64,000 nt of DNA, taken from NCBI GenBank assembly GCA_036253055.1, contig GCA_036253055.1_4124.1, one strand, 5' to 3'. Both the position numbers and the translations under genes were made by a program. Under the pieces are notes generated by a model. The model worked only from the letters and a program-made list of their open reading frames with translations. It had not been told where the DNA came from and made no database searches. This document shows, in pieces, positions 16,063-52,879 of the stretch. The first letter of the stretch is position 1; each line of letters opens with the position of its first letter. The DNA comes from a phage.

Positions 16063-16063
16063 T

Positions 16064-32924: not shown

Positions 32925-33130
32925 AGTTTACTCTTAATATCTTCTATTAAAAATCGAATCCAATCTTGAACATACTCTTCCTGATGGTTTGTGTTCAGTA
33001 CAGCCAACATACGGATCTCTGCTCTTGCAACTTCAATTTCAGTTTTAGGAAGGTCTTTGCTGATATCCACCATTAAGTCCATGTATTTCAAGATAAGACC
33101 GTATGATTGGGTTCGTGTTATAGTTTTCAT
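32921..33130 (-). CDS. Family-B paralog
   Basis: Motif VLNTNHQEEYVQDWI. Confidence 0.6.
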   Translation of the reverse strand: MKTITRTQSYGLILKYMDLMVDISKDLPKTEIEVARAEIRMLAVLNTNHQEEYVQDWIRFLIEDIKSKL

Positions 33131-33327
33131 TGTTTCCTCGTGGACAAAATTTCATTTTTCAATGTATCCACATATTTCGTTACCCATGCATCCTGATAGT
33201 TAGTTCCCAATGTAATCAAAAGGTATAACTCCATTCGTTCTACGTGTGAGTCTGTATTATAAATCTTTGTGAAGTTTTTACGTAACAGTGCTTGATATTC
33301 TTTTTCGGTTAATTTACGCATTTTCAT
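33127..33327 (-). CDS. Family-B paralog
   Basis: Motif TLGTNYQDAWVTKYV. Confidence 0.6.
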   Translation of the reverse strand: MKMRKLTEKEYQALLRKNFTKIYNTDSHVERMELYLLITLGTNYQDAWVTKYVDTLKNEILSTRKQ

Positions 33328-33521
33328 AGTTTACTCGTTACATCTTCAATTAAATACCAAATCCAATCCTTGACATACCTTTCCTGATAGTTAGTCCCAA
33401 TGAATAGTGCCATAATTAATTCACGCTTATAGGCAATACCACGGTCATGTGACTTATACATTATCATAGCCATGTTATTGATAAGTCTTTCGTGGTGTTC
33501 TGCTTGAGTTAAAATACGCAT
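33324..33521 (-). CDS. Family-B paralog (first gene of array)
   Basis: Motif FIGTNYQERYVKDWI; start moved to ATG 33521 (SD AAGGGAG); promoter just upstream. Confidence 0.6.
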   Translation of the reverse strand: MRILTQAEHHERLINNMAMIMYKSHDRGIAYKRELIMALFIGTNYQERYVKDWIWYLIEDVTSKL

Positions 33522-33551
33522 AGGGACTCCCTTGAAAATAATATCAATCAT

Positions 33552-33579
33552 ATAATATATGAATTGTATAAAAAGTCAA
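33552..33579 (-). promoter_or_regulatory. Sigma70-like promoter (TTGACT-N16-TATTAT) heading the family-B array
   Basis: Hexamers on minus strand ~25 nt upstream of SD/ATG at 33521. Confidence 0.5.
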
Positions 33580-33599
33580 TAACATTTTATTCGTAATAC

Positions 33600-33770
33600 C
33601 CCTTTATCGAAGTCGCTAAGGTTACCCGCCCTTTAGCCCCCTACGCATTTTGCCATAGTCCAATCCCTTTTATTTTAAAAAAGTCAAGGGATTACCTATG
33701 CATTTTTTTAACGCATTATTTTAAAAACGCCTTGACTTTTTTCTGAATCAGTACTAGATCCCTTTACGCA
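33600..33770. promoter_or_regulatory. Intergenic control region with 13-bp inverted repeat and repeated ACGCATT motifs
   Basis: AAAAAAGTCAAGG ...(~40 nt)... CCTTGACTTTTTT; ACGCATT-like motif four times. Confidence 0.4.
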
Positions 33771-33980
33771 TTAATCCTTCGTTACGCTAACGATTATCTG
33801 TGTATCCCCGTAGTCCTGCCATACTTCCACGCCATCCGTCGCCCTGGTTAGTCGTGCTGTCATCTGCTTAACAGTCTTAGGCTTTAGTGGAACCTGTTGC
33901 AGTACTGTACGCATAGCATCACTGACGTTATCATGTACGCCAGCAATAGTACCTAGAACGCTGTATACTGTATAGAACAT
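33771..33980 (-). CDS. Hypothetical protein (69 aa)
   Basis: SD AGGAGGG before ATG; perfect hairpin AGGCCGCTctctAGCGGCCT upstream. Confidence 0.55.
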   Translation of the reverse strand: MFYTVYSVLGTIAGVHDNVSDAMRTVLQQVPLKPKTVKQMTARLTRATDGVEVWQDYGDTQIIVSVTKD

Positions 33981-34048
33981 ATGTATGCCCTCCTGATATA
34001 GTTAAGGCCGCTAGAGAGCGGCCTATGATGTTTGGTGATGTGTAATGC

Positions 34049-34450
34049 TTACAGCCCTAAGATAGTGCGTGCTTCGTTACGTTCCGTCCATAGCTGCATG
34101 ATGTGAGCAAGTAAGTCCTTACTAATGTATCCGGTGTTCATAGCTTCACGGATAGATACATCATAAGCACCGAACCCCGTGCGAACGATACGCACATCAT
34201 TTAGGTTAGTGTTATAGATACCGCCAAGATCAACGGCTTCGAATACTGCATCAACTGAATACTCATTGTTACCATCGTTGAAGTTTTCTAGTGCAATAGT
34301 ATTGGATACCGCCCAACGTTTGCAGTTTCCAATGATGCGGCATTGTTCCGGTTGGAGAGTGCCATTACTTACAGCGTACTCCAGTGCATCTTTACCAAAA
34401 GTCCGAGCCAGTACTAAAACGTCAGCGAAGGAAGTGATTGAGAAGGTCAT
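34049..34450 (-). CDS. Hypothetical protein (133 aa)
   Basis: Start set at ATG 34450 (SD AAGGAG); track start 34483 lies in the cassette hairpin loop. Confidence 0.6.
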   Translation of the reverse strand: MTFSITSFADVLVLARTFGKDALEYAVSNGTLQPEQCRIIGNCKRWAVSNTIALENFNDGNNEYSVDAVFEAVDLGGIYNTNLNDVRIVRTGFGAYDVSIREAMNTGYISKDLLAHIMQLWTERNEARTILGL

Positions 34451-34468
34451 GATAAAACTCCTTAATTT

Positions 34469-34532
34469 AGGAGGGAGAACCATTTCCCCCTCTCTATGTA
34501 AAACATTATACTTGATTCTAAGTACAATGCAA
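34469..34532 (-). promoter_or_regulatory. Class-1 cassette: TTGCAT-N16-TATAAT + GTTTTACAT + hairpin
   Basis: Read on minus strand; hairpin abuts SD of gene 34049-34450. Confidence 0.6.
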
Positions 34533-34539
34533 GTACTTT

Positions 34540-34866
34540 TTACATTTTAATTCCTGGATTCAGGTAACGATGTGATCCGTATTCTGGATCGGTTTCGGTC
34601 CAGTACTGTAAATCGATAGTACCTTTAGCGTTAATCTTGTCTACCAGCTTATTCATCTTACTGTAGACTACTTCGCTAGGGATGTAGTGTAATCCTTTAT
34701 TATAGAAGTAGTGGTTAGCTTCACTATCGTTTAAGATATAGCGTGCACCGTTTGCGGTTTGTGCAACAATGAAAGAGTATTCTACTTCCCGATCATTACC
34801 ATCAACAGTAATGCGGTCGAAATTGGTACGGATGAAAGCTTTAACGATAGCGATTGAAGTACTCAT
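34540..34866 (-). CDS. Hypothetical protein (108 aa)
   Basis: SD AGGAG; cassette upstream. Confidence 0.6.
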   Translation of the reverse strand: MSTSIAIVKAFIRTNFDRITVDGNDREVEYSFIVAQTANGARYILNDSEANHYFYNKGLHYIPSEVVYSKMNKLVDKINAKGTIDLQYWTETDPEYGSHRYLNPGIKM

Positions 34867-34886
34867 GGTGAATCTCCTAACTTTGT

Positions 34887-34948
34887 GGGCCGTCGCACCA
34901 TTGCCGCCCTACGAGATACATTATTGCAGTACTGATATACTTTGTCAA
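34887..34948 (-). promoter_or_regulatory. Class-1 cassette (TTGACA-N17-ATAATG + GC-rich hairpin)
   Basis: Minus-strand promoter hexamers with AGTACT in spacer. Confidence 0.5.
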
Positions 34949-34966
34949 TACTTTTTCTATTAAAAT

Positions 34967-35182
34967 TTATTTACAGAACTGTAGCCCGACTGTGTTCGGA
35001 TAGTACACACATCTTTCACGCTTACCGCTAAACGCAGATATCCAGGATAATTTGTATGCCACTGGTTCCGGTGCAAGAGGATTATTTGAATAATCGAGAA
35101 CTTTAACAATTAAACGGTCCCCAACATACCAGCCAGTTGACTCTTTGATACGGTCGATAATTTCTTGTTTGGTTAACGCCAT
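34967..35182 (-). CDS. Hypothetical protein (71 aa)
   Basis: Start moved to ATG 35182 (MALTKQEI); track start is a GTG inside the cassette. Confidence 0.55.
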   Translation of the reverse strand: MALTKQEIIDRIKESTGWYVGDRLIVKVLDYSNNPLAPEPVAYKLSWISAFSGKRERCVYYPNTVGLQFCK

Positions 35183-35204
35183 TTTATATCTCGCTCTTTT
35201 GGAG

Positions 35205-35265
35205 GTGGGCTGCACTATTGCCGCCCTACGAGATACATTATCTCAGTACTGATATACTTTGTCAA
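35205..35265 (-). promoter_or_regulatory. Class-1-like cassette (TTGACA, weak -10, GC-rich hairpin)
   Basis: Near-duplicate of cassette at 34887-34948. Confidence 0.45.
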
Positions 35266-35289
35266 TACTTTTTTTGAAATAGTTTTGAG

Positions 35290-35440
35290 TACTGGCATTA
35301 CATCCACCAGCAGATAGTTACTCACCGTTATTAACTATCTTATAGATACTTCTCTGCACCCTGTGGGCTAGTTTTTGTCTATGCGTATATAATAGCAAAG
35401 GGACTGACCGGAGTCAATCCCTTTTTTTTATTCTTTTTTG
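35290..35440 (-). repeat. Intergenic repeat copy A (conserved element + intrinsic terminator)
   Basis: ~150-nt unit shared with copies at 37.2, 40.1 and 44.1 kb; terminator GGGACTGACcggaGTCAATCCC + T-run. Confidence 0.6.
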
Positions 35441-35641
35441 TTAGATGATTCTCCAATCTTCTACCAGGATTTTAATATACCGTACCAGTGATTCGAGTGA
35501 TTCCACTTCCCGATAATCGGTAGCCGTTTGCACTGTACAAGTACAGCCGATCAAGCCATTGCCAAGCTCTTTGATCTGTACATCGATGCAGTTGGCTTTT
35601 GCTTCATTCAGTACTGCAACCAATTCGTTAGCGATTGACAT
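35441..35641 (-). CDS. Hypothetical protein (66 aa)
   Basis: SD AGGAG; cassette upstream. Confidence 0.6.
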   Translation of the reverse strand: MSIANELVAVLNEAKANCIDVQIKELGNGLIGCTCTVQTATDYREVESLESLVRYIKILVEDWRII

Positions 35642-35661
35642 AATGTTTTACTCCTAAAGGT

Positions 35662-35722
35662 GCGGGAGAACTATTCCCCCGCTCTATGTAAAACATTATA
35701 CATTATCTTGTAGTACTGTCAA
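35662..35722 (-). promoter_or_regulatory. Class-1 cassette (TTGACA-N16-TATAAT + GTTTTACAT + hairpin CGGGGGAAtagTTCTCCCG)
   Basis: Read on minus strand. Confidence 0.6.
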
Positions 35723-35729
35723 ATAGTTT

Positions 35730-35987
35730 TTATGAAATATCTTCGATATAGTCGGCCCATGTCATTTGTTCAGTACTATCTAGTGCACCAGGATTATTTG
35801 GATCAAACCATTCGCCATCCCCTAAGTACATTGCAGCCGCTACCGCTTTATAGCCATTATAGGCGTTATTCCACTGCATAGCACGATAGATACGGCCTTT
35901 GATTGGTGTCTGTACTGGTAATGTTTTATGGTCTTCTACGTAGGCCATAGCTTGAGGATTTACCCGATATTGTGTGAACTGTTCCAT
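35730..35987 (-). CDS. Hypothetical protein (85 aa)
   Basis: Start moved to ATG 35987 (MEQFTQ; SD AAGGGGAA); promoter TTGACA-N17-TGTAAT upstream. Confidence 0.5.
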   Translation of the reverse strand: MEQFTQYRVNPQAMAYVEDHKTLPVQTPIKGRIYRAMQWNNAYNGYKAVAAAMYLGDGEWFDPNNPGALDSTEQMTWADYIEDIS

Positions 35988-36062
35988 TATGTTTCCCCTT
36001 GTAGTTAGTAAAGTTATTACATCAGTACTATCACGCATTGTCAATAGTACTGAAATAAAACT

Positions 36063-36287
36063 TTAGATTAGATTATTGATGCCGTTGATGGTAGACTCGC
36101 TTTCTTCTTTCTCCCATTGGCGGTAATACTTCCATGCTTCATGATAGGTGGCGATCAGTTCATCTTTTTGATCCTGAGTACATGCCAGTACTGAATCACT
36201 GTAAGCGGTGTTATAGATAGAATCAAATGATTTCTTCTCTTCTGCCAGGGTAGCTACTTCCCGCATCAGTTCATCAAAGTTAGCCAT
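36063..36287 (-). CDS. Hypothetical protein (74 aa)
   Basis: SD AAGGAG; cassette upstream. Confidence 0.6.
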   Translation of the reverse strand: MANFDELMREVATLAEEKKSFDSIYNTAYSDSVLACTQDQKDELIATYHEAWKYYRQWEKEESESTINGINNLI

Positions 36288-36306
36288 TTTAGTACTCCTT
36301 ATTAGT

Positions 36307-36363
36307 GGGGGAGGATATCTCCCCCTATGTAAAACATTATACTTTGTTTTACTTACAATGCAA
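36307..36363 (-). promoter_or_regulatory. Class-1 cassette (TTGCAT-N16-TATAAT + hairpin GGGGGAGgatatCTCCCCC)
   Basis: Read on minus strand. Confidence 0.6.
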
Positions 36364-36370
36364 GTACTTT

Positions 36371-36562
36371 TTAAATTTTATTTCCGATATAGTCCGGCCT
36401 GTTCTTTTCGGTCATACGCTTAAGCATTTTTTGCATATGGCTTATTGCTTGTAGTGTATCCTCTTCCAGCGATGAATCAAGATAATCAGGATCATTCTTC
36501 ACCTTACAATGATTATGATAGCGTAGTACTGCCAGTACTTTTTTAACTTCTTCTACTGTCAT
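36371..36562 (-). CDS. Hypothetical protein (63 aa)
   Basis: ATGA overlap with upstream gene, co-transcribed. Confidence 0.5.
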   Translation of the reverse strand: MTVEEVKKVLAVLRYHNHCKVKNDPDYLDSSLEEDTLQAISHMQKMLKRMTEKNRPDYIGNKI

Positions 36563-36831
36563 AATAAGTATTCCACTTCGTTTGCTTTCAGGTTAGTATC
36601 AATCATCAGTGGTTTTTTGTAGTCCACAAAACGATTAGTTTTCTCGATAGCGAAGCCCATATAATCCAGTTTGCTTACAGTACATTCATTCTTAAAAACT
36701 TCTTTCGCTGCATTGATGGCTGATTCAATTGATAACCGCCCATCTAAATTAATGTTACCAAATGATCCACCAGCAGAAGTAGGATTACCGTTCATATCTT
36801 TAATAATCATAGTAGCGGAGTAGCTGGACAT
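36559..36831 (-). CDS. Hypothetical protein (90 aa)
   Basis: SD AAAGGAAA; cassette upstream. Confidence 0.6.
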   Translation of the reverse strand: MSSYSATMIIKDMNGNPTSAGGSFGNINLDGRLSIESAINAAKEVFKNECTVSKLDYMGFAIEKTNRFVDYKKPLMIDTNLKANEVEYLL

Positions 36832-36852
36832 AATTTTGTTTCCTTTTATTGG

Positions 36853-36912
36853 TGGGGAGAGCTATTCTCCCCTTGATGTAAACTATTATACAGTACTGAT
36901 ATACTTTGTCAA
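36853..36912 (-). promoter_or_regulatory. Class-1 cassette (TTGACA-N16-TATAAT + AGTTTACAT + hairpin GGGGAGAgctaTTCTCCCC)
   Basis: Read on minus strand. Confidence 0.6.
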
Positions 36913-36915
36913 TAC

Positions 36916-37137
36916 TTAATTACGTTTAAAATGATATGTACCGTTATCATCCTGTACGCCCCATACTGATTTACCATCAACACCAGTGAAGCCGGATTGT
37001 AATTCAATATGGAAACCGTTAGCATCAACGACGAAAACTTTTTTATTTTCATCCCGATAGCATTGATATTCTTCACCTGCTTTAAATGCTGCATCATTCA
37101 GAAGATTTGAAGCGTGAACGCAGGTCATAGTAGTCAT
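36916..37137 (-). CDS. Hypothetical protein (73 aa)
   Basis: Start moved to ATG 37137 (MTTMTC, SD AAAGGAA); track N-terminus MFYIERG... is translated cassette. Confidence 0.6.
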   Translation of the reverse strand: MTTMTCVHASNLLNDAAFKAGEEYQCYRDENKKVFVVDANGFHIELQSGFTGVDGKSVWGVQDDNGTYHFKRN

Positions 37138-37160
37138 CGTCTTGATTCCTTTTAGTACCA

Positions 37161-37220
37161 GGGAGAACCATTTCCCCCTCTCGATATAAAACATTATACG
37201 CTCATTGAGATAGTTTGCAA
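37161..37220 (-). promoter_or_regulatory. Class-1 cassette (TTGCAA-N16-TATAAT + hairpin)
   Basis: Read on minus strand. Confidence 0.6.
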
Positions 37221-37224
37221 GTAC

Positions 37225-37360
37225 TTTTTATAAAATAGTTTTCAGTACTGAATACTTATATAATAGATACACTTCCGCACCCTATGGGTCAGTGAGTTAT
37301 CTCTCAATGAATATATAATAGCAAAGGGACTGACTGGAGTCAATCCCTTTTTTAATCTTT
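37225..37360 (-). repeat. Intergenic repeat copy B (conserved element + intrinsic terminator)
   Basis: Element CCGCACCCTATGGGTCAGTG; terminator GGGACTGACtggaGTCAATCCC + T6. Confidence 0.6.
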
Positions 37361-37361
37361 T

Positions 37362-37946
37362 TTATCGTGTTATAGTTATCGCGTTAACATCACGTTTTTT
37401 ATAGTACTGATTCCAGATATTGCGGGTTAAACCGTAATCAAGTACTTTAATCAAGCCGTTGCGATCCTGGCCGATATTCTGTTTTCTGATATCTCTTATC
37501 GTTAGTGTGGATAATGTATCATCAACGTGATTGAGAGCATCAGCGAAATGGTGATGGCGTTCTACCGTATTACGTTTAATATTGTACTTTAACTCATTGC
37601 ACGCGTTTACATGCTTTACACTGCCTTTGCTTGCAGTACTCAAACGATCCATAACAATAAACAGATTATCAGGATCGCATAAATGCATATGCACTTTAGC
37701 AAAGTACTGTTTAAGGTGCGGACGGTCATAATCTAAAAAATTCCATACCTTACATTCAGTTTCATTTTGTTCTACACCCGCATCACAATTCGCGACCTTA
37801 ATCACTAACCGATCATTTAAAGCGAATACAATACGGGAAGAACCCGCACCGACGATCTCCAGTCCAGCTAACCGACAAGCTGAAAGGATCTCTTTGTTGG
37901 TTTCCATTGCATGAAGTGAACGGATGAATTTAGTATAGTTACGCAT
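37362..37946 (-). CDS. Putative protein-kinase-like protein (194 aa)
   Basis: Gly-rich loop VGAGSSRIVF, beta3 Lys in LVIKVA, catalytic-loop-like DIRKQN, DFG-like DYG; SD AAGGAG; start at ATG 37946. Confidence 0.5.
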   Translation of the reverse strand: MRNYTKFIRSLHAMETNKEILSACRLAGLEIVGAGSSRIVFALNDRLVIKVANCDAGVEQNETECKVWNFLDYDRPHLKQYFAKVHMHLCDPDNLFIVMDRLSTASKGSVKHVNACNELKYNIKRNTVERHHHFADALNHVDDTLSTLTIRDIRKQNIGQDRNGLIKVLDYGLTRNIWNQYYKKRDVNAITITR

Positions 37947-37977
37947 TGTGTTGACTCCTTGAGTTAATGAAACTATA

Positions 37978-45041: not shown

Positions 45042-45188
45042 CTATTTTTTAGATTTACGCAAACTTTCTACCATCTCAGGAGTAAGGCCAGGCGGGTAGG
45101 AAACCACTTCATCAACGAAACGTAAAGGGAATACCCCAGCGAAAGGTGAACGTGCTTTCTTAGTATTACTCTTTTTTGATGCTTTCAT
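45042..45188 (-). CDS. Small basic protein (48 aa); paralog of 39497-39631
   Basis: Not in track; MKASKKSNTKKARSPFAG...DEVV; SD AAGGAA. Confidence 0.45.
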   Translation of the reverse strand: MKASKKSNTKKARSPFAGVFPLRFVDEVVSYPPGLTPEMVESLRKSKK

Positions 45189-45207
45189 TTCATATTCCTT
45201 AATTAGT

Positions 45208-45267
45208 GGGGAGAATCATTTCTCCCCTTCATGTAAAACATTATACGCGTTTAAAAACTAATTGCAA
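45208..45267 (-). promoter_or_regulatory. Class-1 cassette (TTGCAA-N16-TATAAT + hairpin GGGGAGAAatgaTTCTCCCC)
   Basis: Read on minus strand. Confidence 0.6.
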
Positions 45268-45467
45268 GTACTATTTGAAAGTAAATGCTCATACGCTGCA
45301 TTAACTACGTTTTCAATAACCGACTGTACAGAAAGATCCCCCACGTCCTGGCTATAGTAGAAATCGCTTACAGTGGTGTCATCGTATGCAAATACTTTAC
45401 CAGGTACTGCATCAATCACATACATATTAACCTTTAAGATGTCGATCTTATCCTGTACAGTAAGCAT
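45258..45467 (-). CDS. Hypothetical protein (69 aa)
   Basis: SD AAAGGT. Confidence 0.5.
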   Translation of the reverse strand: MLTVQDKIDILKVNMYVIDAVPGKVFAYDDTTVSDFYYSQDVGDLSVQSVIENVVNAAYEHLLSNSTCN

Positions 45468-45472
45468 ATTAA

Positions 45473-45745
45473 TTAACCTTTTAAGTACTGGCTTAAGTAG
45501 TCTTGTTGATCTTCGGTGATTGCAGCCATCTTCCCTAGTACTGGATTGATGATATAATCCCCTGTAACGTCCTGTAACGCATTCTCAGGCGGTTTAACGG
45601 CTGGGGTAGCCATAGCCATTGCCTGGACTTGTTCGACGCTGTAACGCTCATAAAGGCGGCATTCTTCCGGTGTTAACATAGCATCAGTACGCTTCATCGG
45701 TTTAATGATGCTTTCGATCTCATTCAGTACTTGATTAACGTTCAT
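45473..45745 (-). CDS. Hypothetical protein (90 aa)
   Basis: SD GGGGA. Confidence 0.55.
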   Translation of the reverse strand: MNVNQVLNEIESIIKPMKRTDAMLTPEECRLYERYSVEQVQAMAMATPAVKPPENALQDVTGDYIINPVLGKMAAITEDQQDYLSQYLKG

Positions 45746-45796
45746 GGTATAATCCCCAATATAAGCGGCCTAAATCGACCGCTAACGATGTTTTGA

Positions 45797-46066
45797 TTAA
45801 TAGGTGTATGGTTGACGCTCAAACAATGAATAGACGTTATACGCCCCGCTTATGGGCTTCGCTGGTAAATCAATTTTATATTGTTCACGCTTAAAGATAA
45901 TAAAACGGCAATTGTTTTTAACATCAAAATTGATTGAACGTTCCAGGAGTTTACCATCGTGCACAAATACAAGATAACCGCTTGGTACTTGTTTTGTAGA
46001 ACTGGTTGCAACCATAGACCGACGAACATGTGTACCTGCATCGATTAAAGTACTGATATTTTTCAT
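45797..46066 (-). CDS. Hypothetical protein (89 aa)
   Basis: SD AAGAGGAT; 7-bp inverted repeat ATGCAGA-N15-TCTGCAT upstream. Confidence 0.55.
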   Translation of the reverse strand: MKNISTLIDAGTHVRRSMVATSSTKQVPSGYLVFVHDGKLLERSINFDVKNNCRFIIFKREQYKIDLPAKPISGAYNVYSLFERQPYTY

Positions 46067-46146
46067 TTTACTATCCTCTTAAGTTGATTTAATTTCTTTC
46101 TCCTATGCAGACACTATATCAAAGTATCTGCATAAAGTAAAGCTAA

Positions 46147-46470
46147 TTAAAGATCTTTTTTGCGTTTAACATTCTGTACAGTACAATGCAACGGGATATT
46201 AAGATCATTGCACAAACGATAGAGGGAGGTTTCAACAGTATCAAGCCCGTCTACTGATTCCTTTAAGAGTGATACCGCCGTTTGTTGATATGCATCCTCA
46301 TAGCCATAAGTAAATGATTCAACCGCCAGATCATTCAAGCCGTTATCCAGTTCAACGCTTACATGACAAGAATGATAAGTATTGCCATATGAATCAGTCC
46401 AACGTTTACCGTCAACATTGATTGCATGGATTGCAGCCAGGGAAACGGTGTTGATGATAGTTTTAGCCAT
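46147..46470 (-). CDS. Hypothetical protein (107 aa); paralog of 39086-39409
   Basis: SD AAGGAA; class-2 promoter upstream. Confidence 0.6.
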   Translation of the reverse strand: MAKTIINTVSLAAIHAINVDGKRWTDSYGNTYHSCHVSVELDNGLNDLAVESFTYGYEDAYQQTAVSLLKESVDGLDTVETSLYRLCNDLNIPLHCTVQNVKRKKDL

Positions 46471-46561
46471 TTTAGTATTCCTTAAATTAATATGTGTCGT
46501 CTTGATAAAATCTATTATGCCAGTACTATCAAACTATGTCAATAGTACTGTGATAATATTT

Positions 46562-46774
46562 TTACTTACTTTCTTTCGCTGCTTTATATGTTGCCACTGC
46601 CATAACCACATCAGCACGAACAAAGTTTTTAACCGTGTCACTGTAATAATTGATCGCATCATCTATATCTGCGAACGTCCGATACATACCGCACCAAGAT
46701 ACTTTATAACCTTCTTTCACTTCTACCAGTTTAACGATAGTCTTGTTAACTTTGATTTTAGTAATGATAGCCAT
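46562..46774 (-). CDS. MAII-family small protein (70 aa)
   Basis: Start moved to ATG 46774 (MAIITKIK, SD TGAGGAAAC); track start MVLP is the cassette hairpin. Confidence 0.55.
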   Translation of the reverse strand: MAIITKIKVNKTIVKLVEVKEGYKVSWCGMYRTFADIDDAINYYSDTVKNFVRADVVMAVATYKAAKESK

Positions 46775-46794
46775 TTTAGTTTCCTCATTATCAG

Positions 46795-46852
46795 GGAGAA
46801 CCATTTCTCCCCTTGATGTAATGTATTATACTTTATTCGATTTACTTTGCAA
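46795..46852 (-). promoter_or_regulatory. Class-1 cassette (TTGCAA-N16-TATAAT + hairpin)
   Basis: Read on minus strand. Confidence 0.6.
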
Positions 46853-46861
46853 GTACTTTTT

Positions 46862-47089
46862 TTAATTTAATTCATCCAGGCAAAGGATACGCTCAACGCC
46901 CAAATCAGTTAAACTAATCGACGGCACTTGATAGGTTTCAATGTATGCTACACTTGCCCACTGACCGAACTCATTAACGGCCCAGGTATTCATTGCATTT
47001 TGCAATTCCGCACCTGCCTTGTTAGTAATGACTGCAACTACTTGTTCGTTGCCAGTAGTACCAGATACGCGAGTAATGATAATAGCCAT
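46862..47089 (-). CDS. MAII-family small protein (75 aa)
   Basis: Start moved to ATG 47089 (MAIIITRV, SD AAAGGAA). Confidence 0.55.
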   Translation of the reverse strand: MAIIITRVSGTTGNEQVVAVITNKAGAELQNAMNTWAVNEFGQWASVAYIETYQVPSISLTDLGVERILCLDELN

Positions 47090-47112
47090 TGTTTTGATTC
47101 CTTTGATTTGGA

Positions 47113-47172
47113 AGGAGAACCGTTTCCCCCTCTCGATGTAAAACATTATACGCTAATCTCTTAATCGTGCAA
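47113..47172 (-). promoter_or_regulatory. Class-1 cassette (TTGCAC-N16-TATAAT + hairpin)
   Basis: Read on minus strand. Confidence 0.55.
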
Positions 47173-47216
47173 GTACTTTTTATTACTTTTTGCAAAATAC
47201 TTTAAACGCTCTCAAT

Positions 47217-47307
47217 CGCATTCTAACGACCTTAACGCCACCAGCTAGGGCGATGTATCAGATAATCAGTTTAATGCGTTAGAATCGATTCTAGGCGGTG
47301 CTGGTGG
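47217..47307. repeat. Interleaved inverted repeats (CGCATTCTAACG / CGTTAGAATCG and CCACCAGC / GCTGGTGG)
   Basis: Two inverted-repeat pairs arranged A-B...A'-B' between a terminator and the next promoter. Confidence 0.5.
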
Positions 47308-47324
47308 ACTGGAATACTACAGAC

Positions 47325-47352
47325 ACAAAAAAGCCCACTGTTTAAGGTGGGC
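47325..47352 (-). terminator. Intrinsic terminator (GCCCACcttaaacaGTGGGC + T6)
   Basis: Hairpin then TTTTTT on minus strand, 20 nt after stop at 47375. Confidence 0.7.
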
Positions 47353-47374
47353 TAGTGATTCAGTACTTTAATTG

Positions 47375-47857
47375 TTATGCTTCAACTTTGCGATGAGCTT
47401 CGATCCATTCCTCGCGAGTCATACCGCTTTCTTTGATAGCGTCCAGTACTACCGCAATGCAGTTACCGCGTACAGGAATCAAATGTTCTTCCCCGTTATC
47501 AAGGACAACAGTAACACGTTCTTGAATCCATTTTTTAGGCTTAGATTCCGGCTTATCTTCACCGTACTTAACCGCCAGGGCTTTATGTGCCATTTCAATA
47601 ACCACTTCCAGATCTAAACCAGACACCGCCGCCTGAATACTTTCTATTGTTGCTTGCAGTTCTGCTTCACGGGCTTTTTTCTGTTCTTCCAGTTCTGCTA
47701 CCTTTTTGGCTTGTAGTTCTTTCGCTTCACTGTAAGCAATGTTAAAATTGTTGCGTACTGCTTTCATGGTATCATTATCCAGGTCAGCCAGCAATTCAGC
47801 AGCAATCACAGTATCGTTAGAAATCAGTGCTTTCAGAAATGATTTTACATTAGCCAT
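47375..47857 (-). CDS. Hypothetical coiled-coil protein (160 aa)
   Basis: Start moved to ATG 47857 (MANVKSF, SD GAGGAT); Lys/Glu-rich heptad-like segment; strong terminator downstream. Confidence 0.6.
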   Translation of the reverse strand: MANVKSFLKALISNDTVIAAELLADLDNDTMKAVRNNFNIAYSEAKELQAKKVAELEEQKKAREAELQATIESIQAAVSGLDLEVVIEMAHKALAVKYGEDKPESKPKKWIQERVTVVLDNGEEHLIPVRGNCIAVVLDAIKESGMTREEWIEAHRKVEA

Positions 47858-48049
47858 TTTATAAATCCTCAATTAAAGTTTAAGTTAGTTTATCAAAGTT
47901 TGTTTGACGTGTCCAGTTTTTCATTCGACTTACTGGCGGTCTACTTAATGTTCCCCGTCTTGATGTAATACATTCTACGCTTTTCCCTGGTAATGTCAAC
48001 TACTTTTTTAAAACTATTTTCAAAGTATACCAGTACTACGATACTACAA

Positions 48050-48078
48050 AAACAAAAAAGCCCACTGTATAAGTGGGC
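48050..48078 (-). terminator. Intrinsic terminator (GCCCACttatacaGTGGGC + T6)
   Basis: Near-duplicate of terminator at 47325; follows stop at 48097. Confidence 0.7.
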
Positions 48079-48096
48079 TAGTGATTCAGTACTATA

Positions 48097-48396
48097 TTAT
48101 AAACAATTAATTACGCCAGTGAATGTAACTTTCTCTGTATCCATTACAGTAACCGAACCGCGTTTACTTTTTGCATCGTAATAGATGGTCGTGCTACCCT
48201 GATCATCTTCTTCATGGTACGGGCCATTAGCAAACATTGCAGGGGCCAGTTCCAGGGATTTGGTAACGATCTCAGCCGTTTCCTCGTTAGTCATTGCAAC
48301 AGTGCACTGAATGAATTTTTCTTTCTGTACATCAACGGAAGCGTTAACAGCGAAAGAGGAAACAGATAAAGCCAGGGCGATGATTGCAGTTTTCAT
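48097..48396 (-). CDS. Putative secreted/periplasmic small protein (99 aa)
   Basis: N-terminal signal-peptide-like MKTAIIALALSVSSFAVNA; SD AAAGGAT; own promoter and terminator. Confidence 0.6.
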   Translation of the reverse strand: MKTAIIALALSVSSFAVNASVDVQKEKFIQCTVAMTNEETAEIVTKSLELAPAMFANGPYHEEDDQGSTTIYYDAKSKRGSVTVMDTEKVTFTGVINCL

Positions 48397-48418
48397 TTGT
48401 ATATCCTTTGTTAGTACT

Positions 48419-48474
48419 AGGGAGTATTCCCGATTAGATGTAAAACATTATACGCGTTTAAAAACTATTATCAA
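48419..48474 (-). promoter_or_regulatory. Class-1 cassette (TTGATA-N16-TATAAT + GTTTTACAT)
   Basis: Read on minus strand; weak hairpin. Confidence 0.5.
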
Positions 48475-48507
48475 GTACTTTAATATAAAAGTATTTGAAA
48501 AAAAGTC

Positions 48508-48640
48508 TTGACAACTGCATCCAGTACTGGCATAATATCTACATAAAGACGAGATAGTCACTAACCCACAGGGTGCATAGATCCGTCTATTAAATGATTC
48601 AGTACTGCAAAATAAAGGGGATCGTTTGATCCCCCTGATT
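48508..48640 (+). ncRNA. Candidate plus-strand small RNA (class-2 promoter + CACTAACCCACAGGGTGCA element + terminator hairpin)
   Basis: TTGACA 48508-13, CATAAT 48531-36, element 48559-77, hairpin GGGGATCgtttGATCCCC 48617-34; no ORF; opposite to all local genes. Confidence 0.35.
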
Positions 48641-48641
48641 A

Positions 48642-48863
48642 TTACTTAGTAAGATATAAACAAAAATCACCTTTCTTTGATACTCCGCAAGTGTAACGCG
48701 ATGAATAGTTAGAAACGTCTTGTACTTCTGCAATGACGAGCGTATCATCATTTAACTCATCGCAAAAACATACTGCGGGATCTTCTACGCCGATATTGTC
48801 GGCATGTTCCCGCATAGATTTAACCAGTGCTTCAAGCTGGGAAAGAGTAGTGATATTAGCCAT
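48642..48863 (-). CDS. Hypothetical protein (73 aa)
   Basis: SD AAGGAG; cassette upstream. Confidence 0.6.
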   Translation of the reverse strand: MANITTLSQLEALVKSMREHADNIGVEDPAVCFCDELNDDTLVIAEVQDVSNYSSRYTCGVSKKGDFCLYLTK

Positions 48864-48882
48864 TGTAAAACTCCTTATTAGT

Positions 48883-48941
48883 GGGGAGAACCATTTCCCC
48901 CTTGATGTAAACTATTATATAGTACTGGAAACTATTTGCAA
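48883..48941 (-). promoter_or_regulatory. Class-1 cassette (TTGCAA-N16-TATAAT + hairpin)
   Basis: Read on minus strand. Confidence 0.6.
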
Positions 48942-48947
48942 GTACTT

Positions 48948-49136
48948 TTAATTAAATTCCATAAAATCATTTTCAACGTGCACAACAATCTGATTATTTT
49001 TAAAGGACGCAGAAAACTCTATACAATCATAAACCGCTTTTTCTGTTACCAGACTATGAGCACCAATCGGATTAATTGGGGATTGAATTGTTTCAATCTC
49101 GTTACCCTGCTCATTTACAATTAAAATATTAAACAT
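48948..49136 (-). CDS. Hypothetical protein (62 aa)
   Basis: SD AGGAG; promoter TTGCAA-N16-TATAAT. Confidence 0.55.
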   Translation of the reverse strand: MFNILIVNEQGNEIETIQSPINPIGAHSLVTEKAVYDCIEFSASFKNNQIVVHVENDFMEFN

Positions 49137-49210
49137 TGTCGTTACTCCTGGATAGTGTTAACTCGATGTAAACAATTATACAGTACTGGAAACTAATTGC
49201 AAGTACTTTT

Positions 49211-49414
49211 TTAATTTAATTGCTTTAAAACAAAATCAAAGACACCACGCACATCATTGATCATCGCCTGGCGGTTAGCAGGTAACGCATCAGGATCGCC
49301 ACTATCCCAGGCATTAATGAAGCCACTTAAATCATGGAATACTTTATTCCGTAACCCGATCAACTGCAATTCTTTTTCTTCAAGCTCTTTGATACGTTCA
49401 ATTAAATCACTCAT
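49211..49414 (-). CDS. Hypothetical protein (67 aa)
   Basis: Start moved to ATG 49414 (MSDLIERIK, SD GAGGAT). Confidence 0.5.
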   Translation of the reverse strand: MSDLIERIKELEEKELQLIGLRNKVFHDLSGFINAWDSGDPDALPANRQAMINDVRGVFDFVLKQLN

Positions 49415-49431
49415 TAGATAATCCTCAGTAC

Positions 49432-49716
49432 TCAATTGTAAGATCCACATCGTTCGCAGTAGTGTTCATCTTCCTCATCTTCTACCACTTGCCCGATGAA
49501 ATGATCTACTTTCGCTTTCAGGTTATTATAATCGTTTTCTACTTCCTGTAAACGTTCCTGGTAGTATTCCAGGGCTTCAACAAATGCAGCTTCCTCTGAT
49601 TTTGCTTGCATCGATAAATTCATCCCGCGTGTTTCATCATATAGCCAAAAACCATCGGTGCATTCAGTTATAGATAACGTGTTAGTCAGTACTTTACTAT
49701 TAATTACTTTGCTCAT
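49432..49716 (-). CDS. Hypothetical protein (94 aa), Cys-containing C-terminus
   Basis: SD GAGGAT; C-terminal HYCERCGSYN. Confidence 0.55.
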   Translation of the reverse strand: MSKVINSKVLTNTLSITECTDGFWLYDETRGMNLSMQAKSEEAAFVEALEYYQERLQEVENDYNNLKAKVDHFIGQVVEDEEDEHYCERCGSYN

Positions 49717-49735
49717 TAGATAATCCTCATTAAAG

Positions 49736-49794
49736 GCGGGAACTATTCCCGCTCTCGATATAAAGTATTATACGTTAATCTAATTACTTTGCAA
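49736..49794 (-). promoter_or_regulatory. Class-1 cassette (TTGCAA-N16-TATAAT + hairpin GCGGGAAtagTTCCCGC)
   Basis: Read on minus strand. Confidence 0.6.
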
Positions 49795-49801
49795 GTACTT
49801 T

Positions 49802-50039
49802 TTAGTGCTTTTTATAAAACATCTCAGCGGTGATATTTTTACCCGTTGGTTGTACTTTATCCAGGATCTTTTGGTGTGCACTACGCCCGAAAGAATAAGA
49901 ACCGTAAACCGTTAGCCAGTAGTCGCCATTTTGGTTTACATGTACCGCACAATAAGGAACGCCCCGCGAATCGTCACCAATGAAGTGTGATACTGTACCC
50001 GTTACGTTTGGCGTTGTAGTTTTGATTTGTTCGATCATT
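49802..50039 (-). CDS. Hypothetical protein (78 aa)
   Basis: Start moved to ATG 50039 (MIEQIK, SD AGGAG) downstream of hairpin GGCGGGGAAtggTTCCCGCC. Confidence 0.5.
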
Positions 50040-50096
50040 TCTCTTACTCCTGGGATATAGGCGGGAACCATTCCCCGCCATTGATTCAGTACTGAA

Positions 50097-50708
50097 TTAA
50101 TATTCGATAGATTCTACTACATCGTCGATAACGTTAAATTGATATTCGTTACCCTCAATCAGTCCTACAATGTTTTCAGTAGTAAACTGGTCTTCATAAG
50201 CATTTTCTAAATCACGGTACAGCTTACAAGATAATTCTCGGATAGTATCAGTCAGTAAGTTTTCCAGATCCTCAGCCAATGCAGCCTGTTTTACAGTTAA
50301 ATCAGTGTAGCGAGTATCAACGCAACCGCCTACCGTGTTTTCGTGAGCGTAGCGTGATTGGGAACGTTCTACACTCATTTCCAAATCATCTTCGTTCAAC
50401 AGGTGACGGATGGAACGATATTTCGTTAACGCCTTAACCTTGCGTAAAAACTTCTCAGCGTCAACGTGGTCAGTACTGATTGATGCACCGTCACCTTGCG
50501 ACCAAAAACCACTGTATTGCAATTCAGCTTCATCTATGCCGTATTCTGGCAGTACTGTTTCTTTATAGTATTCCAGTACTGATTCAGCAAAGAAATTATC
50601 CTCACTTGCACGTTCCCGATCCCGAACCAGTTCGATAGCCGCCGCTTGTTGTTCTGCGTTCAGTTCAGAAAAATCCATAACGAAAGTAGTAGTAGTGATA
50701 GTTTTCAT
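50097..50708 (-). CDS. Hypothetical acidic protein (203 aa)
   Basis: SD TGAGGGT; tandem promoters with structured element X copy 2 between them. Confidence 0.65.
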   Translation of the reverse strand: MKTITTTTFVMDFSELNAEQQAAAIELVRDRERASEDNFFAESVLEYYKETVLPEYGIDEAELQYSGFWSQGDGASISTDHVDAEKFLRKVKALTKYRSIRHLLNEDDLEMSVERSQSRYAHENTVGGCVDTRYTDLTVKQAALAEDLENLLTDTIRELSCKLYRDLENAYEDQFTTENIVGLIEGNEYQFNVIDDVVESIEY

Positions 50709-50778
50709 TTTGTAACCCTCATTCAGTAGTTGATGTAAGTATTATACGCTTTTAAAAACAATTGTCAAACTATTTTAT

Positions 50779-50886
50779 CAGGGGAGTTTTTCGTGTGCCT
50801 TACTCCTGGGCTACTTAACGGGAAGTTACTTATTTCGTTCCCCGTCCTGATGTAAAACATTATACGCCTTTAAACATAGTTTGCAA
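50779..50886 (-). ncRNA. Candidate structured leader/sRNA element X (copy 2)
   Basis: About 90% identical to 39968-40074; frame-disrupting differences argue against a peptide. Confidence 0.35.
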
Positions 50887-50931
50887 GTACTTTTTGAAAA
50901 TAGTTTTTATCTCTTTCATATAGATACATTC

Positions 50932-51001
50932 CCGCACCCTATGGGCTATCGCCTTGTGTCCGGCTTGTAAGTATTATCTCACTAAGCCGGATAACGGTCA
51001 A
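50932..51001 (-). promoter_or_regulatory. Class-2-like promoter (TTGACC..TAATAC) + conserved CCCATAGGGTGCGGG element + hairpin CCGGCTT-N17-AAGCCGG
   Basis: Same promoter-to-element arrangement as 42498-42567. Confidence 0.4.
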
Positions 51002-51007
51002 GTACTT

Positions 51008-51274
51008 TTATTCAAGTACTGCAATCTTTTTAGTACTGTACACAGTAACGCGGTTGCCCTTGCGGTCGTGCTTTATTTCTACCACGCGACGCGATACACT
51101 ATCAGGACGCTTTAAAGCAGATAGCCAGTACTGAATTGATCGGGCTGTACTTTGCTTTACTACGGCCCAACGTTTACCACGTTCAGATTGTACGCCCATA
51201 TCTTTAAACGTTGCCCCGTCCTGGCGTGCTGCAATCCGAGCTAGTTCACGCGTCGCAAAATATGTAATAGTCAT
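51008..51274 (-). CDS. Hypothetical protein (88 aa); paralog of 38591-38986
   Basis: Start moved to ATG 51274 (MTITYFATREL, SD AGGGGT). Confidence 0.55.
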   Translation of the reverse strand: MTITYFATRELARIAARQDGATFKDMGVQSERGKRWAVVKQSTARSIQYWLSALKRPDSVSRRVVEIKHDRKGNRVTVYSTKKIAVLE

Positions 51275-51357
51275 GCTGTTACCCCTATCGTTGATGTACA
51301 AAAAGAACTTTATTATAAAGTACTATCACCGTGCAATAGTACTTTTAATCTATTCTC

Positions 51358-51597
51358 TTACATTCCAACCATCGCCGCACGGATCGCAGTAGTACTATAC
51401 TTAAAGCCGTCCGGTGTTTTATCTTGTCCAGTCTGTTCTAAAAATAGCATCATATGACGGGCCGCATCATTACGATTAGTGTTAGCGGCAATAAAGTCCT
51501 GGGCCAACCGGTATAATGATTCGTCGTTATTAATCCAAAGGCTTACATTCCATTGAGTTTTGTTTTTGTGTCCTAAGAACATTTTTGATTTAGCCAT
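51358..51597 (-). CDS. Hypothetical protein (79 aa)
   Basis: Start moved to ATG 51597 (MAKSKMF, SD AAGAGGAT). Confidence 0.55.
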   Translation of the reverse strand: MAKSKMFLGHKNKTQWNVSLWINNDESLYRLAQDFIAANTNRNDAARHMMLFLEQTGQDKTPDGFKYSTTAIRAAMVGM

Positions 51598-51618
51598 TTT
51601 TAAATCCTCTTTATTATA

Positions 51619-51677
51619 GTGGGGAACTATTCCCCACCTGATGTAAAACATTATACGCTTTTAAACTTAGTTTGCAA
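51619..51677 (-). promoter_or_regulatory. Class-1 cassette (TTGCAA-N16-TATAAT + hairpin GTGGGGAAtagTTCCCCAC)
   Basis: Read on minus strand. Confidence 0.65.
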
Positions 51678-51691
51678 GTACTTTATTAAAC

Positions 51692-52054
51692 TTATTCGTA
51701 AATCTTGCCACTGTCAGCCCATACCAGGAAACGAGGCATATTATCCCATGCATCTTGTTTTAAGTTTAAGCCGTGTAATACTTCTGTACTTTCCATTCCT
51801 GGTACTGGCTTGCTATACACTGCAAACATTTCGCCCATGTACTGATAAGCCATCGTTAAATCAGTCTGGATCATCTTATGGATCATTGCATCCAGCATTG
51901 CAGTAGCGGCATACTGTTCACGCTTAAGCGGCAGCATTGCAATCAATTCCCGATAAGCTGCAATGTGAATCCGTACAGTCTCAGCGGGAAGATCTTTCAT
52001 CTCTTCACGGAAAGAAACCAGGTTAAGCATGATAGTATTGATTTGAGTCGCCAT
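51692..52054 (-). CDS. Hypothetical protein (120 aa)
   Basis: Start moved to ATG 52054 (MATQINT); first gene of the middle module. Confidence 0.55.
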   Translation of the reverse strand: MATQINTIMLNLVSFREEMKDLPAETVRIHIAAYRELIAMLPLKREQYAATAMLDAMIHKMIQTDLTMAYQYMGEMFAVYSKPVPGMESTEVLHGLNLKQDAWDNMPRFLVWADSGKIYE

Positions 52055-52077
52055 CGTTTTAATCTCTTTTAAAGTGT

Positions 52078-52137
52078 AGCGGGAAGTGTTCCCGCTCTCG
52101 ATGTAAAACATTCTACACCTTTCCCAATACTTTGCAA
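52078..52137 (-). promoter_or_regulatory. Class-1 cassette (TTGCAA-N16-TAGAAT + hairpin AGCGGGAAcacTTCCCGCT)
   Basis: Read on minus strand; most upstream cassette of the module. Confidence 0.6.
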
Positions 52138-52879
52138 GTACTTTCTACAAATACTTTTAAAATAGTTTTCTTTCTATATAGGGGAACTATCTTTCAGTAC
52201 TGCAACCATCCAGGGGAACTATCTTTCTATATAGTAGTACTATGATTCAGTACTGAATCAATCCACCAAATCATCCCGATACCCCGTAAAACGGCCTCAG
52301 ACGCATTCTAACGCATTAATACACCTAAGCTATACATTTGCACCATTCCAATCATTCCAGGGCTTTACAGGCCGTTTAAACGCGTTAAATTATTTTCAAT
52401 TATTTTGTTTTTAGCTATTGACTCAGTACTAAAAAAGCGTATAATTACTACATAGACGCGAGAAAGCGGATACCCCAGGGGGTGGGAAGATCCGTCCAAA
52501 ATTCAAGATATAAAAAAAGGATACACTCCCGCACCCTAGCAGGTTAACGCACTTTCTCAGTACTGAATTATAGTACCATAGTCCGGCCCAGGATGGCAAG
52601 CAAATTAATTAAAACTTTTTTCATCCAGGGTATTGCTTTATTTTTCCAGTACTGTATAATAGTTCCATCAAGTCGAGAAAGACTCAAGCCCACCGGGTGC
52701 ATAGTTACGCCCAAAATTCAGTACTGAAAAAATTTTTAAAAATATCCGTCCAGGCCGTTGACATTGCCCCCAGTTTATAAGATAATGATTCCAGATTCAG
52801 AAAAATCTAACTCCAGATACTGCGGGGAAACTATCCCCACGCGGTAGGGGAACTATTGGAAAAAACAAAATAAAATTTT

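Follow-up and report, generated by a model that had tools for sequence, protein, structure and literature searches.

The window analyzed here, 64,000 nucleotides of contig GCA_036253055.1_4124.1 (assembly GCA_036253055.1), comes from an Asteriusvirus-type jumbo coliphage, with the closest matches to phages 121Q, PBECO4, G17, and CRJP21 at 90–97% identity in patchy blocks. Our subject is an intergenic repeat of about 150 nt that occurs in four copies, designated A to D, within a region (33–53 kb) densely filled with minus-strand open reading frames (ORFs) of 40–140 amino acids. Each small ORF of this region is preceded by a repeated early-promoter cassette (families D1, D2, D3, and D5) in the order A-rich upstream region, TTGCAA or TTGACA, 16-bp spacer, TATAAT, 5′-untranslated region (UTR) hairpin, and ribosome-binding site (RBS), and there are about 32 such promoter cassettes in 14.5 kb of ORFs of 40–140 amino acids. 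The genes downstream of the cassettes match PHROGs of unknown function, and the ORF list of the window contains no plus-strand genes near the four copies. Among relatives with mapped genome ends, which have a direct terminal repeat of ~21 kb (PMC13070987), the homologous match in phage fEgEco12 (positions 9467–9617) lies inside the terminal repeat.

The original prediction placed the four copies at 35290–35440 (A), 37225–37360 (B), 40100–40235 (C), and 44110–44240 (D), and all four are found there. The pattern TATAATAGCAAARKGRCTGAC, which comprises the conserved −10 and the 5′ stem arm, has exactly four matches (35388, 37314, 40176, and 44200), with 0.02 expected from shuffles. Copies A, C, and D contain the element GCACCCTGTGGG unchanged, and copy B has GCACCCTATGGG in its place; written on the plus strand, the hairpin of copies A and C is precisely GGGACTGAC-cgga-GTCAATCCC, copy B has the loop tgga, and copy D has the arms (A)TGGCTGAC/GTCAACCA(C), which differ from the others by two double compensatory changes (G-C to U-A and A-U to G-C) and one change of G-C to G·U. 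The count of four holds for the full hairpin-bearing form but not for the leader within it, because four more, hairpin-less units with a CCCAYNGGGTGC leader are present in the window (42499–42510 and 50934–50945 on the minus strand; 48565–48576 and 52689–52700 on the plus strand). An ordinary early-promoter cassette, of which there are about 30 between 33 and 53 kb, makes up the 3′ third of the repeat. When the copies are reverse-complemented to the gene strand, the order is upstream stop codon, A-tract, hairpin GGGAUUGAC-UCCG-GUCAGUCCC, UUUGCUAUUAUAUA, ~20–26 variable nt, CCCAYAGGGUGC, 6 nt, GUAUCUAUUAUAU, variable insert, early promoter, UTR hairpin, RBS, and gene. The repeat had been described as ending in an intrinsic terminator with a T-run for its tail; on the transcribed strand the hairpin instead stands first in the element, and the run of six to eight T residues is a plus-strand feature that appears on the minus strand as the A-tract upstream of the stem. 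The shared landmarks that had been pointed out are conserved, but their roles were missed: TATATAATAGCAAA is a TG-extended −10, and CACCCTGTGGG is the core of a leader that starts ~15–20 nt into the transcript of a promoter, P1, described below.

Homologues of the 151-nt element were found at 282 match sites in 64 phage records, among them, at 72–80% identity, Klebsiella phages RaK2 and K64-1, Cronobacter phage GAP32, Pectobacterium phage CBB, and jumbo phages of Serratia, Erwinia, Yersinia, and Salmonella. We compared regions from G17, K64-1, CBB, and GAP32, and gathered further loci from IMG/VR with a pattern for the leader only, leaving the hairpin and promoter unconstrained; this pattern matches phage contigs of 345–378 kb several times each. 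The resulting collection contains 97 non-redundant leader boxes and 87 classified promoter-leader units, 41 with and 46 without a hairpin, and covariation of the hairpin was assessed on 30 distinct hairpins of standard geometry from RaK2/121Q-like jumbo phages. As a negative control, a mis-spaced leader pattern (box-TCTRT separated by N8 rather than N9) returned 124 loci, a chance-level result, and none of them fitted the element profile. A scan of bacterial genomes (596 Gb) gave 60 scattered single matches, none of them enterobacterial, and on this result we rejected host mimicry.

The hairpin cores lie on the minus strand at 35400–35421 in copy A (GGGATTGAC-UCCG-GUCAGUCCC), 37326–37347 in copy B (loop UCCA), 40188–40209 in copy C, and 44212–44233 in copy D, where the compensatory-change variant reads GUGGUUGAC-UCCG-GUCAGCCAU. 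Across the 30 distinct hairpins 95% of the pairing cells are paired, compared with 26–63% in slid controls. All four outer pairs change among GC, AU, UA, and CG, yielding 25 double-change cells versus 3.5 in shuffles (0 of 500 reach this number), and at the inner pairs the 5′ side is the fixed sequence TTGAC, with a partner that varies only between Watson-Crick and G·U pairing. The 9-bp core contains 53 G·U and no A·C cells, so that its pairing amounts to 98.9% as gene-strand RNA and to 79.3% as RNA of the opposite strand. Folding energies range from −12 to −19 kcal/mol on the gene strand and from −5 to −14 kcal/mol on the other strand, with the gene strand better in every copy, and of the 34 loops 22 are UNCG or GNRA tetraloops when read on the gene strand and none is when read on the opposite one. 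Copy D, for which it had been claimed that both arms changed while pairing was kept on the minus-strand RNA, folds on that strand to −17.3 kcal/mol (z = −5.6, with 0 of 200 shuffles as good) and on the plus strand to −6.4 kcal/mol (z = −0.8, with 45 of 200 as good). The A-tract extends the stem, columns 6–8 of the hairpin alignment pairing with columns 31–33. From the 53 G·U against 0 A·C core cells, the folding energies, and the loops we assign the hairpin to the gene strand, and it is a genuine minus-strand RNA structure under selection. The orientation-specific argument for a minus-strand RNA, which was to be checked by aligning the copies with homologues, is thus borne out, and the original prediction is supported in part, being right about strand and covariation and wrong about the start of the element, the relevant T-run, and the nature of the remainder of the repeat.

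The setting of the hairpin resembles that of a terminator for the gene upstream. A co-directional ORF is found directly upstream of 40 of the 41 hairpin units but of only 25 of the 46 hairpin-less ones (Fisher p = 2.6e-6), and the gap from hairpin to upstream ORF has a median of 14.5 nt in those 40 copies. On the gene strand the stem is followed by the tail UUU(U)GCUAUUAU, which has 3–4 contiguous U and in most copies 6–7 U of 9 (range 4–7); in copy A the tail UUUGCUAUUAU occupies 35399–35389 and the A-tract 35422–35430. The distal spacer is T-rich only where there is a hairpin (3.4 versus 2.2 T of 5, p = 3e-6), and the fraction of A upstream is 0.63 with a hairpin and 0.44 without (p = 4e-7), over a background of 0.32. 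An explanation of the A-run as an UP element alone is ruled out by its being significantly stronger in hairpin copies, and the tract would serve both as an UP-like region and as a terminator A-tract. With canonical intrinsic terminators the element has in common a GC-rich stem, a stable tetraloop, an upstream A-tract, and a position after a gene, whereas its downstream U-rich tract is weaker than a canonical one and interrupted (UUU(U)GC/UUAUUAU) because the tract doubles as promoter spacer and −10. An unconstrained canonical terminator of the same window, at 38567–38549 on the minus strand, has the tail UUUUUUAUAG for comparison. For copy A the predicted 3′ ends lie on the minus strand at ~35393–35390, a few nucleotides 3′ of the stem and not at the plus-strand T-run.

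In a mechanical scan, the bases called as a terminator-like hairpin are also called as a promoter, TTGACT-17-TATTAT with a TG-extended −10, which we call P1 and which is present in all four copies. In copy A (35389–35417, minus strand) the −35 TTGACT at 35417–35412 is followed by a 17-bp spacer and TGcTATTAT, with the −10 at 35394–35389, and the same TG-extended TTGACT-17-TATTAT is found on the minus strand at 37315–37343 in copy B, 40177–40205 in copy C, and 44201–44229 in copy D. All 30 distinct hairpins have TTGAC, although their outer stem pairs covary, and upstream of 89 of the 97 leader boxes, with or without a hairpin, there is a TTGAC(N)-17/18-TAnnnT promoter ending 20–29 nt before the box. 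As −35 hexamer, 25 of 34 hairpin copies have TTGACT and 32 of 44 hairpin-less ones the consensus TTGACA, and the sixth −35 base, given over to the U of the UNCG loop, would represent a dual-coding compromise. TGn precedes the −10 in most copies, and P1 has the two hexamers (17 bp apart in the four copies), the TG-extended −10, and the A-rich UP-like region of a sigma-70 early promoter. The related phage PA5oct depends on host RNA polymerase and has TTGAC/TATAATA promoters (PMC7318152), and RpoD-like promoters with UP elements are reported in the CBB paper, in which the leader is not mentioned (PMC5259590). Since the promoter-leader geometry is the same in hairpin and hairpin-less units, the basic unit would appear to be promoter plus leader, with the terminator an optional overlay where a co-directional gene ends just upstream.

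Downstream of hairpin-bearing units there is mostly a second promoter, P2, including in all four copies of the window. It is TTGACA-17-GATAAT at 35237–35265 in copy A, preceding the ORF at 35215–34967, and TTGCAA-16-TATAAT in the other three copies: at 37193–37220 in copy B, preceding the ORF ending at 36916, at 40048–40075 in copy C, and at 44080–44107 in copy D, preceding the ORF at 44028–43687 (all on the minus strand).

The leader is ~45 nt long and contains the invariant 12-nt box CCCAYAGGGUGC. On the minus strand, copy A (35342–35382) has a short A-rich 5′ segment (AUAGACAAAAACUAG), the box CCCACAGGGUGC (35367–35356), and GUAUCUAU (35349–35342), and copy C (40130–40170) likewise has a short A-rich 5′ segment, the box CCCACAGGGUGC (40155–40144), and GUAUCUAU. 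The 5′ segment is replaced by a small stem, stem 1, in copy B (37263–37308), where (U)GAG-AGAUAA-CUC(A) is followed by the box CCCAUAGGGUGC (37288–37277) and GUAUCUAU, and in copy D (44149–44194), where (U)GAG-AGAUAG-CUC(A) is followed by CCCACAGGGUGC (44174–44163) and GUAUCUAU. Stem 1, of 3–5 bp, occurs in 59 of 82 distinct leaders and in 21 sequence versions, with 221 Watson-Crick, 6 G·U, and 0 A·C cells, a pairing percentage that is partly circular in that stems were chosen per sequence, which the shuffle control addresses. Its loops are purine-rich (AGAUAA, AGAACAA, and GCGAAA), and the other 23 leaders have an unstructured GA(A/C)AACAA segment. The mean minimum free energy of the leaders is −4.25 compared with −1.35 for shuffles, and RNAalifold recovers both stem 1 and a mini-hairpin formed by R-CCC-AYA-GGG-U. 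Stem 1 was judged on a hand-anchored alignment, the register of short stems being lost in a MAFFT alignment of the leaders. A pseudoknot between the stem 1 loop (AGAUAA) and the downstream GUAUCUAU was rejected; it fits some Asteriusvirus copies, but the GCGAAA and AGAACAA loops are without a partner.

We consider it likely that each copy is a combined terminator and early-promoter cassette of the PeSL (promoter-early stem-loop) type, a known kind of element found here in a new clade and carrying an undescribed conserved leader. Four parts would be joined in it. The first is an intrinsic-terminator-type hairpin for the upstream gene, with its A-tract, 9-bp stem, UNCG tetraloop, and U-rich tail. 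The second would be a strong sigma-70 promoter, P1, on the same DNA, the 5′ arm providing the −35 TTGAC, the first loop base the sixth −35 base, and the 3′ arm with the U-tail the 17-bp spacer, so that the tail runs into TGcTATTAT. The third would be the P1-transcribed leader, with its short purine-loop stem or A-rich segment, the CCCAYAGGGUGC mini-hairpin, and GUAUCUAU, and the fourth the ordinary early promoter P2 with its own 5′-UTR hairpin, RBS, and gene. Host RNA polymerase arriving from upstream would form the hairpin and stop, or be attenuated, within the P1 spacer; read-through would thereby be kept off P1, and transcription would restart at P1 and P2.

PeSLs were described in T4-like phages as the combination of a sigma-70-like early promoter, AT-rich in its upstream region, with a G-T-containing stem-loop that lies between the −35 and −10 or overlaps them (Arbiol et al. 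2010, PMC2839356; Comeau et al. 2014, PMC4122927); one tested PeSL stem-loop terminated transcription in vivo, and PeSLs mediate modular shuffling of ORFans (PMC2839356; PMC4122927). The elements studied here share with them a stem-loop with G-T pairs that overlaps a sigma-70-like early promoter (the 5′ arm being the −35), many repeats after stop codons in a hyperplastic region of small ORFan genes, and cassettes that bound gene indels and replacements between close relatives. The lineage differs, these being RaK2/121Q-like jumbo phages and not Tevenvirinae, and on that ground we set the cassette apart as an analogue in another lineage rather than a member of the PeSL family by descent. Two differences of construction are also seen. 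In the jumbo phages one register is fixed across genera (TTGAC in the 5′ arm and the UNCG loop from the sixth −35 base), and the promoter leads into the ~45-nt leader with its 12-nt box and, in most hairpin-bearing copies, then into a second promoter, whereas PeSLs run straight into the Shine-Dalgarno sequence. T4-like phages already provide examples of a terminator written over a −35, and what is new here is confined to the conserved leader RNA.

Several points weigh against this cassette reading. The U-tract is weak, with 3–4 U followed by G and C/U, and the hairpin may attenuate transcription or stabilize 3′ ends. The copies are kin by descent, and shuffle controls accordingly overstate their independence; the ORF-context test is also crude, as it used open frames of at least 40 codons and not curated genes. 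The cassette reading does not account for the pairing of the T residues of TTGAC with G rather than A, and it assigns no role to the leader. Finally, a literature search found no published transcript 5′ or 3′ ends for this phage clade, so that termination, initiation, and the transcript ends are points that we infer from sequence.

The alternative that survives best, although we regard it as improbable, is that the conserved part is a DNA site rather than an RNA, with CCCAYAGGGTGC and the downstream TCTATTAT forming the activator box and −10 of a MotA-like middle promoter, or an operator or roadblock. A −10-like hexamer stands exactly 11 nt after the box in the window copies (TATTAT, TATTAA, TATATA, and CAAAAT), a geometry that recalls that of T4 middle promoters, and the box does not covary but stays constant, which is also how DNA sites bound by proteins behave. 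Across genera, however, the hexamer often lacks the essential T6 (TATAGG, TATTAA, CATAGC, and CAGTAC), and for this lack of conservation we rejected a middle-type promoter made of box and downstream −10. The adjoining stem 1 covaries (21 versions, 6 G·U against 0 A·C), which favors a single-stranded RNA role on the transcribed strand, and the box is tied at a fixed distance to the upstream sigma-70 promoter in both orientations. The motif is also unlike the second and third promoter classes of CBB and GAP32 (TGAAACG-TATA and ATAAATA; PMC5259590).

A function on the plus strand, where the hairpin followed by T6–8 would be the canonical terminator of a small antisense RNA or one half of a truly bidirectional terminator, seems to us slightly less probable again. 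The better T-run is on that strand (5–8 T of 8), copies A to C fold there to −12.7 kcal/mol, copy C has a TTGATA-16-TATAAT facing the hairpin at 40104–40131 (plus strand), and the A-tract is stronger with a hairpin, as it would be for part of a terminator. In nearly all homologues, however, the plus-strand stem has one or two C·A mismatches, which is the counterpart of the G·U excess and the 79% pairing noted above; none of its 34 loops is a stable tetraloop, copy D folds no better than shuffles, the facing promoter is found in copy C only, with a TATAAT that is not conserved in other genera, and there are no plus-strand genes nearby. We rejected a plus-strand small RNA with a canonical terminator because G·U and A·C cells are so unequal, because of the loops, and because no plus-strand promoter is conserved, although the hairpin may weakly terminate stray antisense transcripts.

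We give still less weight to a terminator alone, in which TTGAC and TATTAT would be incidental and the rest of the repeat conserved through recent duplication. Annotations made with ARNold in existing records do give only this part, labeling these hairpins a putative terminator in G17 (MK327931) and a stem_loop in GAP32 (JN882285), and promoter-like hexamers are frequent in AT-rich DNA, with 62 found and 43 expected. Against a chance overlap, TTGAC is invariant while the four outer pairs vary freely, the 46 hairpin-less homologues keep the promoter geometry and the leader, and the box lies 20–29 nt from the −10 in the large majority of loci. Nor are the copies recent duplicates, because their conservation crosses genera at 72–80% identity.

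The cassettes also bear on how the region evolves. Of the 21 ends of synteny blocks with G17, 19 fall inside cassettes (p = 3e-5, with 46% of the region occupied by cassettes). Indels of one gene at 41546–41947 and 44709–44995, present in the window and missing from G17, each lie between two early-promoter cassettes, and the 121Q homologue of copy C is a mosaic that carries the copy A segment between −10 and box. Breakpoints of recombination between related phages are marked by the repeats, and PeSL cassettes behave likewise in T4-like phages. The dispersed copies in both orientations and their location at synteny breakpoints could recall a non-autonomous mobile element, similar to a miniature inverted-repeat transposable element, that carries the hairpin by chance, but this is very improbable, as terminal inverted repeats and target-site duplications are not seen in the copy alignments, the copies are without exception found in one functional slot, between a stop codon and a promoter or gene, and transposition is not needed to account for the breakpoints, for which homologous recombination between cassettes, as demonstrated for PeSLs (PMC2839356), suffices.

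Read as PeSL-type cassettes, these loci would mean that operon boundaries and early-promoter counts are mis-stated in more than 60 jumbo-phage genomes, in which dual-coded sites are labeled plain terminators or stem-loops. One 40-bp stretch would meet the constraints of RNA folding and of sigma-70 recognition together, with G·U pairs absorbing the fixed TTGAC. Shuffling in the style of PeSLs, described only for T4-like phages, seems to take place as well in the ~20-kb terminal-repeat early region of an unrelated jumbo clade.

Without a hairpin, the promoter-leader unit is found on both strands of the window. On the minus strand, TTGACA-17-CATAAT, stem 1 GACG-AGAA-CGUC, and the box CCCAUAGGGUGC (42510–42499) occupy 42499–42567, and TTGACC-17-GATAAT, stem 1 GCC-GGACACAA-GGC, and the box CCCAUAGGGUGC (50945–50934) occupy 50934–51000, followed by an ordinary early promoter. 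On the plus strand, a stand-alone unit at 48508–48643 consists of TTGACA (48508–48513), a 17-bp spacer, CATAAT (48531–48536), the box (48565–48576), and the hairpin GGGGAUC-GUUU-GAUCCCC (48617–48634), and a second unit at 52640–52720 has the variant box CCCACCGGGUGC (52689–52700) behind a TGTATAAT-type promoter. The stand-alone unit stands among minus-strand genes, and its predicted RNA of ~95 nt folds with z = −2.7. Because the minus-strand reading of its hairpin has a T-rich tail (UUUAUUUUG; DNA TTTATTTTG), we read it as a putative bidirectional terminator shared with the convergent minus-strand gene. A stable hairpin after the leader is present in 25 of the 46 hairpin-less units and in 4 of the 41 hairpin-bearing ones, and in ~20 of those 25 it stands at a fixed 33–41 nt after the box with a T-rich tail on the opposite strand. 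Such a post-leader hairpin would be a bidirectional terminator common to the leader unit and the convergent flanking gene, and the leader unit tends to adjoin a main-strand terminator in either orientation.

We tentatively propose, as a possibility to which we would not yet commit ourselves, that the leader is an undescribed structured RNA family of RaK2/121Q/GAP32-like jumbo phages, composed of a 5′ stem with a purine-rich loop, the invariant R-CCC-AYA-GGG-U-GC mini-hairpin, and RUCURU, and existing as a discrete ~95-nt RNA in ~20 of the 46 hairpin-less units and as a 5′-UTR module in most hairpin-bearing ones. Its strict coupling to a sigma-70 promoter and, in either orientation, to a main-strand terminator would suit an RNA controlling the read-through, stability, or processing of early transcripts, either through an action on the transcribing polymerase or through the binding of a phage or host protein. 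An Rfam cmscan of positions 33000–53000 of the window (E ≤ 1) gave four weak unrelated matches, none on any copy, and a literature search with the box sequence returned unrelated primer matches only. The motif, which has no fewer than 97 non-redundant copies and a covarying stem 1 and which neither the database nor the literature search matched, is a candidate new phage regulatory RNA. The lambda nut boxA/boxB and HK022 put sites bear some likeness to it in combining a small purine-loop hairpin with a conserved box in the first ~50 nt of early transcripts of a terminator-dense region, a comparison by which we claim no membership. The leader differs from them in having no sequence match to boxA/boxB or put and no Rfam match, no N-like protein was identified, and ~20 hairpin-less units stand ~40 nt before a terminator hairpin.

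Some further observations concern the leader units. In three relatives (L002 at 2073, L004 at 12616, and L145 at 920) the leader runs directly into an RBS and a conserved ORF of 172–178 amino acids (MPGQFRSKAGATLAGHS...), for which the PHROG match is phrog_16530 ("virion structural protein"); such a product is unexpected behind an early sigma-70-type promoter. In copies B and D (37193–37315 and 44080–44201) the P1 −10 with the start of the leader (ATTATATATTCATTGAGAGATAG) forms an inverted repeat with the P2 spacer and −10 (CTATCTCAATGAGCGTATAAT) ~85 nt away; when the P1 transcript of copy D is folded, these arms are predicted to pair and enclose the whole leader, the copy B case was seen by inspection of the sequence, and copies A and C do not show the inverted repeat. 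In relatives (L004 at ~6060–6200, L132 at ~6175 and ~8049, and L005 at ~11321), leader units arranged convergently in pairs surround the palindrome GAGAATGATAATCATTCTC. This palindrome, of which the window contains no copies, resembles the Escherichia coli Fur-box consensus.

Other repeats were noted in the window. The palindrome AGTACT occurs 256 times against 18.6 ± 4.2 expected (~14-fold), is absent only from ~18.1–25.6 kb and 29.1–33.7 kb, and lies near the four copies at 35245, 35288, 37220, 37244, 40075, 40099, 44107, and 44130. Its fixed sites are AAAAAGTACTTGCAA at the early-promoter −35, CAGTACTG just before the −10, and a position ~25 nt after the leader box, and a regulator might use it as an operator. 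The stretch 52888–53039, immediately downstream of the early region, shows an 8-bp periodicity with units of the CGTCTAGC and CATCCAGA type (family D8). Five tandem paralogous units ~1.2 kb apart with a common RBS and N terminus (ATGTTACCTTTTGGAAGAATGATTAAGTA...; families D6 and D9) at 58115–63058 look like a tandemly duplicated plus-strand gene family, and a 145-nt repeat present five times with a spacing of ~440–480 nt at 14267–16295 (families D4 and D12) is likely to be a tandem array of small paralogous genes or domains.

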